The position numbers and the translations under genes are program-made. The notes under the pieces were generated by a model. It was not told the DNA's origin and ran no database searches. It was given only the letters and a program-made list of their open reading frames with translations. A DNA stretch of 64,000 nucleotides from a virus (taxonomy: Duplodnaviria > Heunggongvirae > Uroviricota > Caudoviricetes). Positions 19,800-36,836 of the stretch are shown piece by piece. How positions within the stretch are numbered: position 1 is the stretch's first letter; each line of letters starts with the position of its first letter. The DNA is taken from IMG/VR virus record IMGVR_UViG_2908567220_000002, positions 1 through 64,000 of that record. One strand, given 5' to 3'.

Positions 19800-20374
19800 T
19801 GCGCTTTACCTCCCGTCGCCTCGTTGTACAGTTTCATGGCGTGCTGTGCCATCGCGTGCGCCTCCGTCGGTGCAGGGCGGACATCACGTCCGGTTCCCGG
19901 CTGTGGTACATGCTGCATACGGGCAGTCAGTCCGCCTTTCTGGCCTGCGCCCCCTGCCACCGCCGCTTTCATCACGGCTCTGGCCTGTTTCACACTCATG
20001 CGGGTGTTGAAGGCCAGCTCTGCGGCAAGGGCCGGATTTTTCGCTGCATACGGCGTGGCGAAGATGGCTGCGCAGCGATGACGTTCGCTGGCGCGGGCCT
20101 TTTCTTCGTCATCGTCGTCTTCTGCGTTTTCATCGTCGTCGTTATCGTCATCATCCGCACGGGAGCGCGCCTTACGGCTTTCGCGGCGGTCATCGTCGTC
20201 ATCCGCCTGCCCGTCGTCGTTATCGTCGTCATCCGCACGGGAGCGCGCCTTACGGCTTTCGCGACGGTCCTCGTCATCCTCCGCATTCTCCCCGTCGCGT
20301 TTGTCCTCCGGATCGTCATCCATTCGCGAACGACCGCCCATGCCTACCAGGTGCATGAAAGAAAATTTACCCAT
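19796..20374 (-). CDS. Putative capsid scaffolding protein with highly acidic tandem repeats
   Basis: 192 aa between protease and decoration genes; 78-bp unit repeated twice (20151-20306) encoding RRESRKARSRADDDDNDD. Confidence 0.45.
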   Translation of the reverse strand: MGKFSFMHLVGMGGRSRMDDDPEDKRDGENAEDDEDRRESRKARSRADDDDNDDGQADDDDDRRESRKARSRADDDDNDDDENAEDDDDEEKARASERHRCAAIFATPYAAKNPALAAELAFNTRMSVKQARAVMKAAVAGGAGQKGGLTARMQHVPQPGTGRDVRPAPTEAHAMAQHAMKLYNEATGGKAQ

Positions 20375-21227
20375 TGTTTGCTGTCTCCTTTAACAGAAAA
20401 GAAAAGGCCTCATCCGGCGACATCACGTCGTCGGCAAGCCCTGCCTGCACCCCTTCGTCAGCCCGCAACGTCCGGGCCTCAAGTGCACGCACCGCATCCG
20501 CGCTGATGCCACGGTTGCGGGCAACGGTTTCGATAAAAAGCGTGCCTGCAGCGTCAGTGTCCGCCTGAAGTGCCGCCTGTGCCGCCTCACTCAGCGGACG
20601 CAGCGGACTGGTCTCCGCCTTCCGGCTGCCGCAGGTGATGATGGTCACGTTCAGCCCCTCATCCTTCATCTGGCGCGACATGTCACAGTGCACGTAGATG
20701 ACACCGACGGATCCCACGCCGCCCGTGCGGGGGACCAGGATCCGGTCGGCGGCGCTGGCAAGGGCATAGGCCGCCGAGTACGCCGACTCCGAGAGAATGG
20801 CGTGCACCGGTTTCTGCCCGCGACAGGCAAAAATCGTGTCCACCAGGTCAAAACACCCGGCCACTTCTCCGCCGGGTGAATCGATATCAAGACAGATGCC
20901 CTTCACATCAGGGTCGTTAAGCGCCGTCAGAAAATTTCGCCGGATGCCGTCATACCCCGTCATGCCGGAGTAAGGCCGTAGCGTCCCCAGTTTCTGTACC
21001 AGGGTGCCGTGCACGGGAATGATGGCGATCCCCTCCAGAATGTCGTACCCGCTTTCAGGGGCGGGACGGCAGAAATCGTCTTCATCATCGTCATACCAGG
21101 CCCCCGTTTTTATCCGGGTGATCCCGAGTCGTTCTGCCAGTGCCGTAACAATGATTTCCGCTTTTCGCGGATGAATGGCCAGCGGCGTGTTCAGCAGGCG
21201 CTGGCTTAACAGTGCAAGTTGATTCAT
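20367..21227 (-). CDS. Head maturation protease (S49/ClpP-like, lambda gpC family)
   Basis: 286 aa, downstream of portal; S49 peptidase-like motifs. Confidence 0.75.
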   Translation of the reverse strand: MNQLALLSQRLLNTPLAIHPRKAEIIVTALAERLGITRIKTGAWYDDDEDDFCRPAPESGYDILEGIAIIPVHGTLVQKLGTLRPYSGMTGYDGIRRNFLTALNDPDVKGICLDIDSPGGEVAGCFDLVDTIFACRGQKPVHAILSESAYSAAYALASAADRILVPRTGGVGSVGVIYVHCDMSRQMKDEGLNVTIITCGSRKAETSPLRPLSEAAQAALQADTDAAGTLFIETVARNRGISADAVRALEARTLRADEGVQAGLADDVMSPDEAFSFLLKETANNG

Positions 21228-27097: not shown

Positions 27098-27156
27098 ATT
27101 CCACCTTCTCATGCTGCATTATCGCAGCCCCTCACTGAAGGGCTGCTGTAATGCTG

Positions 27157-27456
27157 TTACTCAGTAACTACCGCACCTTCCGGTAATTTCATACCGGCAA
27201 ATACCGGACAGCCCGGATGGCGATCATCTTCTGTTGCTTCCAGCATTGACTCACCAAACCACTCCGTTGTGGCGCGACCATCAGCTGCTTTGTAGTGGAT
27301 CAAGTACTGGTTTTCGCCATCCGCATACTGCGCGCGGGCTTTAATCTCACCCCATTCATCACTGATGCGCATCTCCACCAGTTGAGACAACTCAAACTTA
27401 AACGGAGCAGCATCAGCACCAATTACAAACGGTTTGTTTTCTGTTTTTTCCATCAT
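27157..27456 (-). CDS. Hypothetical protein
   Basis: ORF 27157-27504; probable start MMEKTENK. Confidence 0.4.
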   Translation of the reverse strand: MMEKTENKPFVIGADAAPFKFELSQLVEMRISDEWGEIKARAQYADGENQYLIHYKAADGRATTEWFGESMLEATEDDRHPGCPVFAGMKLPEGAVVTE

Positions 27457-27627
27457 CGTCTCCTGATATCTAAGCCCGTCGCCGCACCGGGTACTGATCA
27501 ACATTTGAGTATTCGCGGCGACATAAAGAATTTATTTTATTGAATAACCACAAACACAGAATTTCATGCTTTCCGGTCGCTGACGCACCCTTCATTTTTC
27601 AGCAAAATATTCTGCTCTTACAGGCGA

Positions 27628-27810
27628 TCAGTTCTGCAGACACTGCCGAACATCGTCGACAATTTCACAGACCTGAGAAGCTGTATCGAAAAGCTGGCGC
27701 GCTTTATCCAGGCTGACGCATCCCACCAGGAAAAAAGGCACCAGTATCGCTACCAGTGCCCATTTCACCGCCGCTCGCGGCATTCTGTGTGTCCAGTGTT
27801 TTCTGCTCAT
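27628..27810 (-). CDS. Small lipoprotein (possible outer-membrane spanin-like lysis component)
   Basis: Positively charged N-region, hydrophobic stretch, lipobox LVGC; immediately downstream of the endolysin. Confidence 0.4.
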   Translation of the reverse strand: MSRKHWTHRMPRAAVKWALVAILVPFFLVGCVSLDKARQLFDTASQVCEIVDDVRQCLQN

Positions 27811-27824
27811 AACCCACCTGGTTA

Positions 27825-28208
27825 TCAGCGTTTCAACTGAAAATGAGGTCCGTCTTTCAGTGTTTTCCAGTCGCCGCCCCATTCGATGGCAGTTCCCAGC
27901 TCTGCGGCAGCCTGCTTAAATGCCTGCGCGATTTTCTCGTACAGAGGCCAGTCCCATGACACCTGGCTGCCAATGTAGGCCACAACATCCACCGCATCAC
28001 CGGTCAGGTGGCGGCTGTTCATGGTCTGGCTTTTTCCTTCCGCGACCAGTTGTTTCTGGCGCTCTTTCGTGCGCAGACCTTCCGTAATACCAAAATCAAC
28101 CTCCGTCAGTTCAAGGGCACGGCGAACTACAGCAACCAGCTGTGGTCTGACACACTCCAGATTTTTCTCGCTCCGGCGGCTGAATCTGAATTTACCCGAC
28201 ATATTCAC
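27825..28208 (-). CDS. Endolysin, peptidase M15-like L-alanyl-D-glutamate peptidase
   Basis: 127 aa; motifs SRHLTGDAVDV and WGGDW typical of M15 zinc peptidases. Confidence 0.7.
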   Translation of the reverse strand: MNMSGKFRFSRRSEKNLECVRPQLVAVVRRALELTEVDFGITEGLRTKERQKQLVAEGKSQTMNSRHLTGDAVDVVAYIGSQVSWDWPLYEKIAQAFKQAAAELGTAIEWGGDWKTLKDGPHFQLKR

Positions 28209-28480
28209 CTCAACAATGGAAAGATTCTTGTGACGTTCCCGCGTGCGCGTATCACCAGCACGCAGAACAGCAGATTAAAAAACACCTCCAGCCAGCCCGT
28301 TGCTAACGAGCGACCACACAGATAGCTGAGGGGGGCAAAGGCATACAGCAGCATCAGCAGCCAGGCCAGCCATGACATCAGCGGTTTGTGCCTGGAGTCA
28401 CGACGACGATAAAAAAAGAGCGTCAGCACGATAACCGTGCATAACGCCACATTCAGCAATCCGGGAAGGTTACTTAACAT
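28205..28480 (-). CDS. Holin-like membrane protein
   Basis: 91 aa, two to three hydrophobic segments; between holin and endolysin. Confidence 0.5.
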   Translation of the reverse strand: MLSNLPGLLNVALCTVIVLTLFFYRRRDSRHKPLMSWLAWLLMLLYAFAPLSYLCGRSLATGWLEVFFNLLFCVLVIRARGNVTRIFPLLR

Positions 28481-28862
28481 TGCCGCCTCCTCCGCCCCGC
28501 AGGCGCGAGAACAGACCAGACACCAGTGATGCGATATCCTGCTGGTGGATGAATGACATAATCTTTACCGACACCAGCGATACCAGCACCGCACACAATG
28601 CATCTGCAGACGTGCCGTCATAACCAGTTTTTGATGCCACCCAGGCTGAAAGCAAACGCGCACCCAGTACGCCGACGATAAATGACACAAGAAAATGTGC
28701 CGCCACCCGCCATGCTGAAAGCGCCTGCGGTATCGTTGCAACAAACAACGCCCCCGCAAATGCGCCAAACACAATCCCGAAATCCGTTCCGGTAAACAGC
28801 CCGAAAACAGTCGCCCCACCGAGCGCAGCAGCTGTGCCGGAACCGGATAAGGGTTCAGACAT
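28470..28862 (-). CDS. Putative holin
   Basis: ORF 28470-28916; probable start MSEPLSGS; several hydrophobic helices; first gene of the lysis cassette. Confidence 0.5.
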   Translation of the reverse strand: MSEPLSGSGTAAALGGATVFGLFTGTDFGIVFGAFAGALFVATIPQALSAWRVAAHFLVSFIVGVLGARLLSAWVASKTGYDGTSADALCAVLVSLVSVKIMSFIHQQDIASLVSGLFSRLRGGGGGNVK

Positions 28863-28902
28863 ACTTTTTCTCCTGTAAATTAAAAAAGGCCACCAGCGGA
28901 CC

Positions 28903-28949
28903 AAAAAAAACACCACACCAAAGACATCCGCAGATGCCTTTGTGTGGTG
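28903..28949 (-). terminator. Rho-independent terminator immediately upstream of the lysis cassette (tR'-like position)
   Basis: 13-bp imperfect inverted repeat CACCACACCAAAG / CCTTTGTGTGGTG with 13-nt loop, followed on the - strand by a T8 run. Confidence 0.55.
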
Positions 28950-29661
28950 TTATTCAGATTTGATATGTATGGGACGTGGAGCGAATACAAAAAAGCCCGT
29001 CAGAACAGGCCTCAAAAAAAAGCCAGCTCTGGGGAGGCTGGCAGGAATGAAAAATGACTCTCGAGATTATTCATCACAAAACGGATTACTTTGCGCTGAA
29101 CAGAATGCTCCTTCATCGTATATTTCTCAACTGGAGAGACTCATTTTCAGATTTTGTTATCTGTCATATTGACAGTCCCCACTTCTCCGGGGTAGTGAAG
29201 TAAGTAGCGTTTGCTTCCTGTAAATGCCCGAGGGTTATCCATGATCTCTTGTATAAGGCATTCCTCAGTGGACTAATTTCGGAGTTATCATCCCGTTCAA
29301 TTTCATCCAGGATCCCCTACTAAATAAGTTCACCATTCTTCAGGTGGCAGTTTCTTTCAGCCAACCGTGCACTCAACAGCACATTCTTGTCGGACTCAGA
29401 ATAACTCCTGCAAATGCAACAATGATGGCCGTCGCCCCAATAACCTTGTGCTGCCCGCATCCGTAAAAAGCGAAGGCCCCAAATTACCAGAATAAAACCG
29501 AGCAGATATCCGACCTTCGTTACCGCATGGACTTCATTGTCTCATACACCAGGATCAGCGAATTGCAAAGGATGAAGCACGCCCCATGAAGATTCTCCCA
29601 AAAACTATAATTGTAAAAACCAAAGTAGTGGAAGCGAGCACTTGTAACCCCGAACTTTGAA

Positions 29662-29688
29662 TAAAAAAAAACCGCCTGGAGCGGCGGT
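29662..29688 (-). terminator. Rho-independent terminator downstream of the tRNA genes
   Basis: Stem ACCGCC/GGCGGT with 6-nt loop followed on the - strand by T9. Confidence 0.6.
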
Positions 29689-30041
29689 TAATGGCATATA
29701 AAAACGCATGATTTAATTGTATTCAGAAGTGTCGGGTGCCTCCCGAAGCATCCAGCCCCACAAGGATACTGTGGTTTCCCGCTAAACCGACTCTTTAAAC
29801 CACCCTCGCACTGAGGAACACCTCTGTAGTGTTTTTACAACACCGGGATAGTGCATCATCAGCCCTGCCAGGAAATACTAAATCTCCACCGATAATGCAC
29901 CATTCCATTGGTGTAAAAAATCAGCACTGAGGCTATAACCGATCTTAAACCATAGCCTGAGGACCAAAGATGTCTTAAAACAACCTGCCCCCACGTAAAA
30001 AAACACGCCAGTGCTGTATAATTCGTGTTGCCAGAATAATG

Positions 30042-30116
<75 letters not shown>

Positions 30117-32039: not shown

Positions 32040-32573
32040 TCATCTTGTTAACCTGAAATGTTTAGAAAAAGATGACTTAAAACTTGCAACAGGCTCCAAT
32101 ACAGCATGTAAATCTCTTGTAAACCACTTAGTTTCCTGCATGCCCATTTTCAGTAACTTTGAAAGTTGATTGTTACAAGCAATAAAATCTCTCTTGAAAT
32201 CATTTATACCCGATGTTTTTTTTGCACAGAACCCAGCAATTAGTTTTTTTACAGGAATTCCGCAACACCAGGCCAACTCCTCCTCAAAATTTCTTTTCTG
32301 CTGCAAAAGATAAACTTTATGCCCTCTGTTTTTAAGGAACTTTACATTTTCAATGAATCTTGCAGATTGCTCCACTTCATCACTATCAAAGACAATTAGT
32401 ATATCACTTCCCTTCGGAATAGTAATCGCATAATTTCTTATGCTCTCTTGCCAAAAGTTTCTTTTTACAATTGATTTGGCATCAATAACTCTCTGTTGTT
32501 TCATCTTCTGAAAAAGAGAGTTTTCTGTTTCACCTTCGACAAAAATTATTCTTATTTTAGACAACCCCGCCAT
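32040..32573 (-). CDS. Small Toprim-like protein (RloB/AbiLii-like or DUF4276/DUF4435-like), predicted nuclease partner of the upstream ATPase
   Basis: 177 aa; N-terminal IIFVEGETE and downstream IVFDSDE resemble the Toprim Glu and DxD motifs; start overlaps the ATPase stop (TGATG); AT-rich. Confidence 0.6.
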   Translation of the reverse strand: MAGLSKIRIIFVEGETENSLFQKMKQQRVIDAKSIVKRNFWQESIRNYAITIPKGSDILIVFDSDEVEQSARFIENVKFLKNRGHKVYLLQQKRNFEEELAWCCGIPVKKLIAGFCAKKTSGINDFKRDFIACNNQLSKLLKMGMQETKWFTRDLHAVLEPVASFKSSFSKHFRLTR

Positions 32574-33763
32574 CAGAGTAGCTCCGATACTAATGATGTG
32601 TCAGGTAAGACACCAAAGACATCTCTCTCAACAGCGTTTCGCATGCTACGGTCATTTTTTTTAACAACTGAATTTGCTTCAACAAACTCCGAATAGTCTT
32701 TCGTTTTTTTAATAAAAATGAACGAGTGAACAGGCAGATCCAACTCAAAAATATCCATGTTATGTGTTGTATAGAAAAACTGAGTATTTTCTTTCAAATT
32801 AGATATAATCAGCGCCACAATCATACGCTCTAACTCTGAATGTGTATAAGCCAATTTCTCGTCAAGAAAATAAGTCATTGATGGTATTAGAGATTGCTTA
32901 CCTAGTCTTTCACAATCAGAGATAATAGCGCTTATAAAATGCGCTACCGTCACTGCCTCGTATGTTCCTCGAGAAAGACGGTCTGAGTTAATTATTTCAC
33001 CTTTACTGGTAACGACAAGAGAATCAGAGTTTTTAAATTTAATCAGATAAACCGCAGATGATTTATTTTCATCCCCGTCACTTTCAGACTCCAGCATCTC
33101 GGTAACTCCTATAATACTTGAATCGAAAGTGCGAATTATCCTTTCAAGAATATTTTTATTCATTCCTGAAATTGCAGTGGTACTCTCTTTAGTTTCAGAC
33201 AACAAATAGTACCATCCACCAAAAAACTTAAGTTGCTTGAAAAACTCCAATACAACTGGTTCGCTATCAGTAGCTAGTTCCTGAAAAAAATATTCTGTAT
33301 CTCCTGGGGCCCTTCCAGAAAAGAGTTGATTCAGTTTTTCTGTGGTTTTATAGCAAGAATCATTTAATGCTATTTGAACAAAACCATATTTAATTTCTTT
33401 GATTATGTGCGCTCCGCCTTCACTGGTAGCAAAGCGTACATACAAACGATGATGAAAATGTTCCTCCGTAGCAAAGTCCACTTCAAACGAAGCATCATTA
33501 TTTTTATTATTCACTCGCAGATTACTCCGCAACTCTTTGGTTCTTAGAAACACCTGAATTCCACAAAGAATTCGCCCTAGTGACGTCTTACCTGAAGCAT
33601 TCCCCCCCGTTATGATACAGACTTTTTTATAGTAAAATTTAGGCCGTCCAGCCAAAAACTCCCCATCAAGAGGCATGTTTACAGGTTTCCTTGGATAGGA
33701 CAGGTTAAGCTCTGCATCCTCAAAAGCGTACAAATTGATAAATCTCAATCGTGTAAATATCAT
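32573..33763 (-). CDS. ABC-type/AAA ATPase (AAA_15/AAA_21-like; RloA/AbiLi/AriA/OLD-like)
   Basis: ORF 32573-33853; probable start MIFTRLRFINLYAFEDAELNL at 33763 with GGAAG RBS; Walker A GGNASGKTS, Walker B-like TYFLDE, H-loop-like YTTHN. Confidence 0.7.
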   Translation of the reverse strand: MIFTRLRFINLYAFEDAELNLSYPRKPVNMPLDGEFLAGRPKFYYKKVCIITGGNASGKTSLGRILCGIQVFLRTKELRSNLRVNNKNNDASFEVDFATEEHFHHRLYVRFATSEGGAHIIKEIKYGFVQIALNDSCYKTTEKLNQLFSGRAPGDTEYFFQELATDSEPVVLEFFKQLKFFGGWYYLLSETKESTTAISGMNKNILERIIRTFDSSIIGVTEMLESESDGDENKSSAVYLIKFKNSDSLVVTSKGEIINSDRLSRGTYEAVTVAHFISAIISDCERLGKQSLIPSMTYFLDEKLAYTHSELERMIVALIISNLKENTQFFYTTHNMDIFELDLPVHSFIFIKKTKDYSEFVEANSVVKKNDRSMRNAVERDVFGVLPDTSLVSELL

Positions 33764-33852
33764 TCTTATCTTCCATATGTTGGAACTTAACGTAAGTATT
33801 GTCCAGACCTTGATGAACGTCAACAAGATTGATAGCTGATGCACTTCTATCA

Positions 33853-34410
33853 TCAGTTATCAGAAAAGCACCGAAGTGCCACGCACATTGGAAGGAAAAG
33901 CATGGTTTCAGCCATCGCCAACCAAACATCAATGCGATTTCTACAAGTTTTCAGGCTCCAGTCAGGGTGATTCTTTTTTAACTGTTCTGCCATTTTCAGC
34001 TTGCTCATTCCCAGCCCTTCATATCTTTGTCGGAGGATACAAATCAATCCCGGATGCTCTGCCAACACTTCACTAATTACCCGATCGATACATAACGCCT
34101 CGGCATCAGTACAATAAGCCAGCCCGCTCTTTTGCTTGCTGTTGATCATCTCACGCAAAAACGCTTCCAGCTCAGTTTTATCAATCCCTGATTTTTTTAT
34201 TCTGCGCAGAGCTTCATTGATCGCAGTTTTTGTAAGTGTTTTGGATGCCAGCAACTGATTGAACATATTTCCTGGTTTGCCACCACCTATGTACGACCAA
34301 CGCCCCCACATCCGTAATTTCCCCTGGATCCAGACGGCTTCCAGCGTTTTTAGACGTAAATGCTCGCCGCTTTTGCCTGTAATTTCCGGGTATATCATAT
34401 TTACGATCAC
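33853..34410 (-). CDS. Putative late-gene antiterminator Q-like protein (phage 21/82-type); identification tentative
   Basis: 185 aa directly downstream of rusA (canonical Q position); RMWGRW motif resembles the WGxW motif recalled for 21-type Q. Confidence 0.45.
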   Translation of the reverse strand: MIVNMIYPEITGKSGEHLRLKTLEAVWIQGKLRMWGRWSYIGGGKPGNMFNQLLASKTLTKTAINEALRRIKKSGIDKTELEAFLREMINSKQKSGLAYCTDAEALCIDRVISEVLAEHPGLICILRQRYEGLGMSKLKMAEQLKKNHPDWSLKTCRNRIDVWLAMAETMLFLPMCVALRCFSDN

Positions 34411-36270: not shown

Positions 36271-36426
36271 TTACTCCTCAGGTTCGTAAGCTGTGAAGAC
36301 AGCGACCTCCGTCTGGCCGGTTCGGATTCGTACCTCGCAGAGGTCTTTCCTCGTTACCAGTGCCGTCATTATGACGGTTAAACAGATGACGATCAGGGCG
36401 ATTAACATCGCCTTTTGCTGCTTCAT
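36271..36426 (-). CDS. hokD: Hok-family type I toxin (HokD/RelF-like)
   Basis: MKQQKAMLIALIVICLTVIMTALVTRKDLCEVRIRTGQTEVAVFTAYEPEE, near-identical to HokD as recalled; the longer in-frame ORF to 36483 may be the mok-like frame. Confidence 0.8.
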   Translation of the reverse strand: MKQQKAMLIALIVICLTVIMTALVTRKDLCEVRIRTGQTEVAVFTAYEPEE

Positions 36427-36836
36427 AGCCTGCTTCTCCTTGCCTTTCGGCACGTAAGAGGCTAACCTAGATTTGCCGTTCATAGATTGAGCCTCAGATT
36501 AATGTATAAGCGTCTTGCAGGACGCATAATGTTAACTGGGGCTTTTCTCTATCTGCCTTTGGTGTTCATGCTTGAGGCAGATAGCCTCAAGCACCCGCAG
36601 CAATTTTACTTAACTCCCCTTTTCCCACAAATCGTTTTTATCCCTACTGGTAATGTTCTCCCGATGTGGGATTCCCACATTGGAACGAATTCAATCAGTT
36701 AAAGACTCATCAGAATCTCACCTTTCTAAGTGCCCACAGGTGAGGCATTGCAATAAAAATAGCAAACGTGTATAAAAGGAGGTAATGCATGTTTTTCCAG
36801 TCTTATCAATCCATTACTGAGAGTTAAGGGGGCGCC

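Follow-up and report, generated by a model that had tools for sequence, protein, structure and literature searches.

The last gene of the lysis cassette of a phiP27-like Escherichia coli prophage encodes a 60-residue prolipoprotein, which is termed LIPO in this study. LIPO may be the outer-membrane lysis component of this cassette and may act without an inner-membrane spanin subunit (i-spanin), a reading that we hold at about an even chance. The cassette consists of four closely packed late genes on the minus strand at 27628-28862 of the window, which is the whole stretch of 64,000 nucleotides analyzed (positions 1 to 64,000 of the IMG/VR virus record IMGVR_UViG_2908567220_000002). These genes encode two holin-family proteins (holins 1 and 2), an M15 endolysin and LIPO. 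The view that these genes make up a lysis cassette in the late operon of a phiP27-like temperate phage is part of the same explanation, and the even chance applies to both parts jointly. LIPO is tentatively assigned to the outer-membrane step because of its position, its coupling to the preceding gene, its conservation and its reciprocal exclusion with the spanin pair Rz/Rz1.

LIPO and its slot in the cassette

The LIPO gene is located at 27628-27810 on the minus strand. It starts with ATG behind an AGGTGG Shine-Dalgarno sequence, 14 nt past the stop codon of the endolysin gene, and RefSeq annotates the identical 60-residue open reading frame (ORF) in a genome with 99.4% identity. The amino acid sequence of LIPO is MSRKHWTHRMPRAAVKWALVAILVPFFLVGC (signal part) followed by VSLDKARQLFDTASQVCEIVDDVRQCLQN (mature part). 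The signal peptide (residues 1-30) has an n-region with five Lys/Arg residues, a 13-residue hydrophobic core, WALVAILVPFFLV, and the lipobox L-V-G-C. This lipobox fits the rule-based consensus for o-subunits, [LVI][ASTVI][GAS]C, and the residue at +2 is Val, so that LIPO is predicted to be sorted to the outer membrane by the Lol system. The mature part, CVSLDKARQLFDTASQVCEIVDDVRQCLQN, consists of 30 residues and contains two Cys residues beyond the lipid-modified Cys. It contains zero proline, in agreement with a preliminary description of this DNA, in which the protein was noted as a lipoprotein of roughly 60 residues with the lipobox LVGC that is not proline-rich. LIPO is the sole credible lipobox ORF in the six frames of the 64 kb.

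LIPO is predicted by AF2 to form a single continuous helix from residue 12 to residue 59, with moderate confidence (pLDDT 71.5). The mature part is amphipathic (hydrophobic moment muH of 0.38, reached by 2.6% of shuffles) and has a heptad register in which all a/d positions are hydrophobic (A7, L10, A14, V17, V21, V24 and L28). This pattern suggests that LIPO associates with itself. The net charge of the mature part is -2 in the window and 0 in the consensus.

No homology of LIPO to characterized proteins is detected by the Pfam, NCBIfam and PDB profile searches. LIPO matches phrog_7528, a family of unknown function, across exactly its 60 residues (E=5e-35), and only small uncharacterized lipoproteins are recovered from sets of 5.8 billion and of 1.84 billion proteins. 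The close relatives (at least 67% identity) form 131 clusters from E. coli, Escherichia and Salmonella, all annotated as "hypothetical", and further, diverged lipoproteins of 55-71 residues with 35-62% identity to LIPO come from a profile search against 1.84 billion representatives. G30, the lipid-modified C31, C48 and C57 are invariant in the relatives down to 35% identity. LIPO thus carries two invariant periplasmic Cys residues, C48 and C57, of the kind that serves for intermolecular disulfides in two-component spanins.

The dN/dS ratio of LIPO, calculated from 49 unique coding sequences, is 0.16 for the whole gene, 0.12 for the mature part and 0.20 for the signal peptide. The variable sites are distributed over codon positions 1, 2 and 3 as 15, 16 and 36, and neither a frameshift nor an internal stop codon is found in the 88 loci that were fetched through LIPO. 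These results indicate that LIPO is under purifying selection. They bear on the possibility that LIPO is a functionless, decaying remnant of an o-spanin that has lost its i-spanin. A frameshifted copy in phage GER2, and the fact that debris commonly builds up in prophages, are in favor of this possibility. It is contradicted by the dN/dS ratio, the codon-position bias and the 88 unbroken reading frames, by the invariance of the Cys residues and lipobox to 35% identity and in other genera, and by the presence of LIPO in deposited phage genomes. A remnant is therefore considered to be very improbable.

Approximately 170 related loci were compared, namely the 88 loci mentioned above, 80 loci fetched through holin 2 alone and hence independently of LIPO, and further distant contexts. 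The hosts are Escherichia, Salmonella and Lelliottia, and some sequences are metagenomic contigs. LIPO closes the holin-endolysin cassette in all 88 loci fetched through it. It is always the last gene, is co-directional with the preceding gene and is tightly coupled to it, such that in the relatives it starts 1-5 nt after this gene or overlaps it by ATGA. None of the ~170 loci has LIPO outside such a holin-endolysin cassette, and no promoter-like site is found for LIPO itself.

Five arrangements are seen among the 88 loci. LIPO directly follows the genes for Phage_holin_8, Phage_holin_3_7 and M15 proteins, in this order, in 40 of them. It follows Phage_holin_8, Phage_holin_3_7, a GH108 endolysin and one or more small transmembrane (TM) ORFs in ~28, and an M15 endolysin, in cases a 93-residue ORF, and a small TM ORF in ~14. 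The remaining types have a phiP27-type insert (three loci) or a KilA-N insert (one locus). In other contexts, LIPO is combined with Phage_holin_3_1 and an M15-type endolysin (L177, L178), with Phage_holin_3_1 and GH108 (L179, L180), or with a 117-residue holin-like membrane protein and GH108 (L174, Lelliottia), or its start is overlapped through ATGA by a KilA-N/Ant-like gene (L175, Salmonella). A survey of 5426 complete E. coli genomes gives the unit of endolysin and LIPO in 338 of them. The direct junction of the window type is the commonest among these, and the others have inserts of ~230-590 bp. The genomes of phages phiP27, phiSTEC1575-Stx2k and vB_Apl-pPE4 contain LIPO and no convincing spanin.

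When loci are collected through holin 2 alone (n=80), LIPO is present in 72 and Rz/Rz1 in one, neither is present in three, four are too short, and none contains both. In one locus (L096), holin 2 is 100% identical to that of the window, and the downstream minor-tail gene is common to both. In place of LIPO and the following phrog_1935 gene, this locus has genes for a 145-residue Rz with an N-terminal transmembrane domain (TMD), an embedded 71-residue lipoprotein Rz1 and a KilA-N protein. Another locus (L003) similarly has Rz/Rz1 in the LIPO slot. The more distant phages mEp390 and HK639 have the two holins, a lysozyme and an overlapped pair of a 91-residue i-spanin and a 75-residue o-spanin. 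The cassette of phage GER2 consists of S, R, a small TM ORF and Rz/Rz1, followed by a mere frameshifted remnant of LIPO. Intact LIPO is never found together with Rz/Rz1 in the loci compared.

Alternatively, LIPO may be a moron unrelated to lysis, that is, an outer-membrane lipoprotein like Bor, Cor or T5 Llp that serves the lysogen or excludes other phages and is located at a recombination-prone module end. The junction behind the endolysin gene is indeed a hotspot for cargo, since KilA-N genes, an opposite-strand gene, a 93-residue ORF and LT-II toxin genes are found there in relatives. In addition, some cassettes lack both LIPO and a spanin, and a terminator within the LIPO gene, described below, could mean that LIPO is regulated apart from the late operon. 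On the other hand, LIPO always has the direction of the late gene before it, to which it is coupled tightly or at the level of translation, without a promoter-like site, it is never located outside the holin-endolysin cassette in the ~170 loci, and it is exchanged for Rz/Rz1 in near-isogenic cassettes, with a pseudogene left beside Rz/Rz1 in GER2. The transcription of Bor runs opposite to that of the late operon, and cor and llp have tail or receptor-binding genes as their neighbors and are not part of lysis cassettes, so that their placement differs from that of LIPO. A moron is considered to be a rather unlikely explanation.

Search for an inner-membrane partner

Rule-based scans of the cassette and of the rest of the 64 kb detect neither an Rz-like protein nor an embedded Rz1 nor a unimolecular spanin. 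A six-frame scan of the 64 kb gives no ORF of 60-260 residues that has a single N-terminal TMD and a plausible periplasmic tail. Apart from LIPO, the scan for an N-terminal TMD yields a HokD-like toxin, an Ail/Lom-like outer-membrane protein outside the module and spurious antisense ORFs. An ORF for an i-subunit with an N-terminal TMD and a periplasmic domain is not found in any frame of 27100-28950, and an i-spanin is not found beside LIPO in relatives from four contexts. In the preliminary description, the cassette was said to have no recognizable inner-membrane spanin. This statement holds, because the analysis of the frames of 27600-27900 and of the 64 kb gives no Rz/Rz1 pair. An Rz-like ORF embedded in or overlapping 27600-27900 is rejected, because the other frames of this region hold merely a 37-residue ORF that starts with GTG and has no TMD. 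The HokD-like ORF is that of a type I toxin and is located at 36271-36483 on the minus strand, in the early region of the prophage.

The gene at 27157-27453 on the minus strand encodes a 98-residue protein of the phrog_1935 family. It is located 3' of LIPO in approximately half of the related loci, and is replaced together with LIPO in L096. This protein is rejected as a partner of LIPO, because it is soluble without a TMD and is present in only approximately half of the loci.

PhiP27 has been classified as having a "separated" two-component spanin, both subunits of which are singleton families (Kongari et al. 2018, PMC6139136). Its combined periplasmic length of 62 residues is the minimum of 528 systems (PMC6139136). 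The "o-spanin" of this pair is encoded at 20706-20861 of the phiP27 record and has 51 residues with a 30-residue mature part and 83% helix (PMC6139136). These coordinates identify it as the LIPO orthologue. LIPO is thus already catalogued through this orthologue, but is uncharacterized. The "i-spanin" is an unannotated 64-residue ORF with a TTG start at 20348-20542 (PMC6139136). This ORF is located in a ~475-bp segment between the endolysin and LIPO genes, which is absent from the window and most relatives. In the phiP27 locus (L001), it lies at 4833-5027 on the minus strand, antisense to a 90-residue phrog_36812 gene at 4771-5043 on the plus strand, and gives no PHROG match. In another locus (L039), the 90-residue gene is intact at 45% identity and the "i-spanin" frame is broken to a 36-residue fragment. 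Because this ORF starts with TTG, has no PHROG, is antisense to a conserved gene and is not itself conserved, it is probably spurious. The published i-spanin of phiP27 is therefore probably an artefact of seeking any ORF with a TMD near a lipoprotein.

The phrog_4493/1115 family consists of small tail-anchored proteins of 50-67 residues encoded directly 5' of the slot for the outer-membrane disruptor. The window lacks this family, and in relatives it is sometimes followed by a second TM ORF of 44 residues (phrog_4906). Small TM ORFs of the relatives are located, for example, at 2685-2858 of L005, 2840-3043 and 2688-2822 of L006, 1900-2073 of L008 and 1630-1782 of L176. The phrog_4493/1115 proteins have a basic N-terminus, predicted to be inside, and a C-terminal TMD, and lack a periplasmic domain. 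Because a phrog_4493/1115 ORF is followed by Rz in GER2 and by LIPO in phiSTEC1575-Stx2k, this protein appears to be a general accessory of the cassette, rather than the i-spanin of LIPO. It could be an antiholin or a lysis regulator. Both phrog_4493/1115 and phrog_4906 are rejected as the i-spanin, because they have no periplasmic domain and are absent from the window and 40 of the 88 loci, and because the former also precedes the canonical Rz/Rz1 of GER2.

These results are relevant to the possibility that LIPO is an ordinary o-spanin that promotes fusion of the Rz/Rz1 type with an unrecognized inner-membrane partner, which might be the phrog_4493/1115 protein, one of the "holins" or the 64-residue phiP27 ORF. 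The published classification of phiP27 (PMC6139136) is consistent with this possibility, as is the presence of a small TM ORF (phrog_4493/1115 or the 44-residue ORF) 1-5 nt upstream of LIPO in 43 of the 88 loci. The commonest spanin pattern, with two periplasmic Cys residues in the o-spanin and zero in the i-spanin, also fits it. However, the candidate partners have the defects described above, and no small TM ORF is present in 40 of the 88 loci or in the Lelliottia and Phage_holin_3_1 contexts. Selection on LIPO is unchanged in the loci without this ORF (dN/dS of 0.156 for the direct junction versus 0.177 for the loci with an upstream TM ORF). Furthermore, the 30 mature residues, which correspond to a helix of ~4.5 nm, leave most of the periplasm unbridged. 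An unrecognized partner is considered to be improbable.

Because a helix of this length falls short of the inner membrane, fusion of the inner and outer membranes of the spanin type is excluded for LIPO, unless such a partner exists. The combined length available for bridging the two membranes is that of the 30 mature residues, as no partner is found.

Cassette genes, terminators and cargo

The region shares 92.7% identity with the Stx2e phage phiP27, and prophages of E. coli genomes match it with 99.4% identity. Positions 2-31859 of the window are collinear with the prophage of E. coli DS26-1, with genes for a contractile tail, head, terminase, lysis proteins, tRNAs and a methylase, and the two sequences diverge past 31.86 kb.

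Holin 1 is encoded by the first gene of the cassette, at 28470-28862 on the minus strand, and has 130 residues with several TMDs. It matches PF16931 Phage_holin_8 (E=1.1e-22, 80.9 bits against a cut-off of 26.4) and the holin family phrog_198 (E=5e-41). An AGGAG Shine-Dalgarno sequence is located 7 nt 5' of its ATG, and this start is the RefSeq start in the genome with 99.4% identity. Holin 2 is encoded at 28205-28480 on the minus strand with an 11-nt overlap with the holin 1 gene. It has 91 residues and three TMDs, with hydrophobic segments at residues 5-23, 34-52 and 59-77 according to hydropathy. It matches PF05449 Phage_holin_3_7 (E=4.8e-22, 78.2 bits against a cut-off of 25.4) and the holin family phrog_217 (E=9e-38). 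Both proteins are thus small multi-TMD proteins that are encoded directly 5' of the endolysin and score above the Pfam cut-offs, as is typical of holins. The proposal of two holin-like proteins in the preliminary description is borne out by the Pfam and PHROG matches.

The endolysin gene is located at 27825-28202 on the minus strand and encodes a 125-residue M15 (VanY-like) L-alanyl-D-glutamate endopeptidase from an ATG behind GAGGTG. The protein matches PF13539 Peptidase_M15_4 (E=1.6e-12) and the endolysin family phrog_465 (E=2e-74). Its PDB relatives, 8q2g (E=1.4e-42), Serratia ChiX 5opz (1.7e-41) and T5 endolysin 2mxz (4.4e-24), are all L-Ala-D-Glu endopeptidases. The zinc-site motif of the M15 endopeptidases, SxHxxGxAxD, is present as SRHLTGDAVD. 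These matches and this motif agree with the earlier assignment of the endolysin as a peptidase rather than a lysozyme or transglycosylase. The endolysin is soluble and has neither a signal sequence nor a SAR segment, and a hole-forming holin is therefore needed for its release.

Two tandem hairpins like those of intrinsic terminators are located at 29042-29022 and 29013-28992 on the minus strand, ~130 nt 5' of the holin 1 ATG. Both are formed in the centroid fold of 28992-29042, with a U-run after each, so that a terminator immediately precedes the cassette as had been proposed. A third terminator-like hairpin with a 7-bp stem and U9 is located at 29670-29689 on the minus strand, within the ORF-less spacer that separates the tRNA genes from the cassette. 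The terminator scan gives nine terminator-like sites, as compared with 4.1 +/- 2.2 in shuffles. A gene for a Q-like late antiterminator (DUF1133, E=8e-99; PF06530 Phage_antitermQ, 31.5 bits against a cut-off of 26) is located at 33853-34410 on the same strand, 5 kb upstream of the cassette with the terminators in between. It is presumed to regulate the cassette, which would be transcribed by Q-dependent read-through.

An additional terminator-like hairpin is located inside the LIPO ORF, at 27736-27761 on the minus strand (27761-27730 with the U-run), covering codons 17-27 within the region for the signal peptide. It consists of an 11-bp stem with a GNRA loop, GGGCACUGGUA-GCGA-UACUGGUGCCU, followed by U6, and its fold gives a z of -2.8. 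Across 68 unique coding sequences, codons 19-26 hardly vary at their third positions, though these positions are mostly four-fold degenerate. In the same set, synonymous polymorphism is seen at three of nine degenerate codons in the hairpin, as compared with 33 of the 47 outside it (p=0.056, Fisher). In relatives with 49-56% identity over the remaining LIPO gene, 25-30 of the 30 nt of the hairpin are kept. The Lelliottia hairpin with its U-run matches at 29 of the 30 nt, as compared with 49% identity over the remaining gene, and the single change, GCGA to GCAA, still gives a GNRA loop. The changes in L177 are from A to G and retain wobble pairs, and a G.U pair is changed to G-C in Stx2k at the price of a change from Leu to Pro. 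The hairpin of L179 has two mismatches. These results suggest that the hairpin is under selection at the nucleotide level, either as RNA or as DNA. It may confine the synthesis of LIPO to Q-antiterminated late transcripts, made by terminator-resistant polymerase. Such a restriction on transcription of the region for the mature peptide would fit, if the LIPO peptide is toxic on its own.

The spacer at 28917-30042 is a 1.1-kb ORF-less region between the phage genes for tRNA-Gly/Thr and the holin genes, and contains the three minus-strand terminators. It gives a weak, below-threshold match to the STnc100-like Rfam family at 29659-29848 (E=0.06), the 3' end of which coincides with the terminator at 29670-29689. 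Cargo is located at the same site in relatives, including stx2e (phiP27), stx2k, a gene for a pertussis-like toxin (Rac-SA53), genes for TerB and DUF3927 (L004, L005, L094), and genes for a subtilase-like AB5 toxin and an ADP-ribosyltransferase (L003). In the LT-II prophages SerU-LTIIb (L090) and Rac-SA53 (L091), LT-II enterotoxin genes directly follow those for the two holins and a GH108 endolysin, and neither LIPO nor a spanin is found within the fetched flanks. The region 32040-33853 of the window (minus strand), between the Q-like gene and the late genes, encodes a 426-residue AAA_15-type ATPase (PADLOC AbiLi model, E=1e-25) and, in the next, overlapping ORF, a 177-residue protein without a match. 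This pair is likely to be abortive-infection or defense cargo. At this position, the window is not matched by the DS26-1 prophage, to which it is otherwise 99% identical.

Possible outer-membrane disruption by LIPO and comparable systems

LIPO resembles the o-spanins of two-component systems (lambda Rz1 and T4 PseT.2) as a small, predicted outer-membrane lipoprotein with a consensus lipobox, which is encoded last in the cassette and occupies the Rz/Rz1 slot. Periplasmic Cys residues are present in both, and o-spanins most commonly have two of them. PseT.2 and LIPO are both predicted to be helical, unlike Rz1. LIPO differs from these systems in that an embedded, overlapping or adjacent i-spanin gene is absent, that its 30-residue, proline-free mature part is the shortest in the survey by Kongari et al. 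and too short for the envelope, and that its sequence resembles that of no spanin family. LIPO resembles the unimolecular spanin T1 gp11 in that a single gene would account for outer-membrane disruption, with an N-terminal outer-membrane lipoprotein signal. However, the proteins of the gp11 type have a C-terminal inner-membrane TMD and a long, beta-rich periplasmic domain without Cys residues, whereas LIPO has no second TMD, is helical, has 30 mature residues and contains two invariant Cys residues. The sole hydrophobic segment of LIPO is that of the signal peptide (residues 14-32), and the C-terminal 30 residues are amphipathic or polar without a TMD. Judged from these predicted features, LIPO is a member of neither the two-component nor the unimolecular spanins, because the defining features are absent.

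The disruptin phiKT gp28 is likewise a short amphipathic helical peptide from a cassette without spanins. Disruptin is a cationic, LL-37-like peptide that is not known to have a signal sequence or a lipid anchor, whereas LIPO is predicted to be exported and lipid-anchored and is neutral to acidic (net charge -2 to 0). LIPO is thus not a disruptin by charge or predicted location. The nearest functional precedent is provided by the colicin lysis proteins, or BRP (ColE7 Cel; Lysis_col), which share with LIPO a precursor of ~47-60 residues, a mature lipopeptide of ~28-30 residues and, as predicted for LIPO, Lol sorting to the outer membrane, and which act on the outer membrane without an inner-membrane partner. 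A colicin lysis protein with a 47-residue precursor and a 28-residue mature outer-membrane lipoprotein permeabilizes the outer membrane through activation of phospholipase A (PMC2896534). These proteins are lethal when overexpressed and are tightly regulated (PMC2896534). LIPO gives no Pfam match to Lysis_col at E<=1 and no BLASTP alignment to a ColE1 Kil sequence. The contexts also differ, since LIPO belongs to a phage late operon next to genes for holins and an endolysin, and the colicin lysis proteins to an SOS-driven colicin operon. The ChiWXYZ system of Serratia marcescens and T5 Lys are related to the cassette through the endolysin only (ChiX closely, T5 Lys clearly) and are uninformative on LIPO. 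The chi operon also encodes the spanin-like proteins ChiY and ChiZ.

The following pathway is proposed. As follows from homology, one or both holin-family proteins permeabilize the inner membrane, and the soluble M15 endopeptidase is thereby released and strips the peptide cross-links of murein. According to sequence rules, LIPO would be exported by the Sec system, processed by LspA, lipidated and transferred by the Lol system to the outer membrane's inner leaflet. There it would present a 30-residue amphipathic, heptad-patterned helix, with a Dsb-dependent disulfide probably formed within or between subunits. Comparative genomics suggests that it takes the slot held by Rz/Rz1 in the sister cassettes without a dedicated partner of the Rz type. 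The outer membrane might be weakened from within, either because the LIPO helix inserts or oligomerizes in the inner leaflet or because an outer-membrane phospholipase is activated, as by the colicin lysis proteins, and turgor might then burst it after the loss of murein. The last two steps are speculative.

Several points weigh against the assignment of LIPO as an outer-membrane component that acts alone. The calls of TMDs and lipoboxes are rule-based (hydropathy windows and a consensus lipobox) and not those of SignalP or DeepTMHMM. A small TM ORF, and hence a possible partner, is located directly upstream of LIPO in approximately half of the loci. For the weakening of the outer membrane, LIPO lacks sequence likeness to the colicin lysis proteins and, unlike the disruptins, is neutral or acidic. 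Three cassettes with sufficient downstream sequence (L106, L117 and L148) have neither LIPO nor Rz/Rz1, indicating that the slot can be empty. Phages defective in spanins still lyse their hosts in shaken culture, as is known from work on lambda Rz/Rz1, so that a missing spanin is no proof of its replacement. The empty slots and the dispensability of spanins keep the moron explanation alive.

The LIPO cassette is best filed as phiP27-type, a variant of the outer-membrane disruption step of phage lysis in which a catalogued "o-spanin" stands alone. We further propose, only tentatively, that LIPO represents a third class of phage outer-membrane disruptors, namely a stand-alone, disulfide-bonded helical outer-membrane lipoprotein of ~30 residues that replaces the spanin, acts from the inner leaflet by, for example, activation of phospholipase A or direct disruption of the leaflet, is functionally convergent with the colicin lysis proteins and has an embedded fail-safe terminator in its gene.

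The minimum periplasmic length of 62 residues in the spanin survey probably rests on an artefact, and the literature record is corrected in this respect. Phages without spanins are no surprise to specialists. No identifiable spanin is present in ~13-15% of the phages of Gram-negative hosts (PMC12819732). As of 2026, disruptin is the sole known alternative, and the existence of other outer-membrane disruptors is stated to be open (PMC12819732). The LIPO family is a concrete candidate for a third kind of disruptor. It is widespread and is also present in Shiga-toxin phages (phiP27 and Stx2k). Because stx is located immediately upstream of the cassette in these phages, the timing and efficiency of lysis bear on the release of the toxin.

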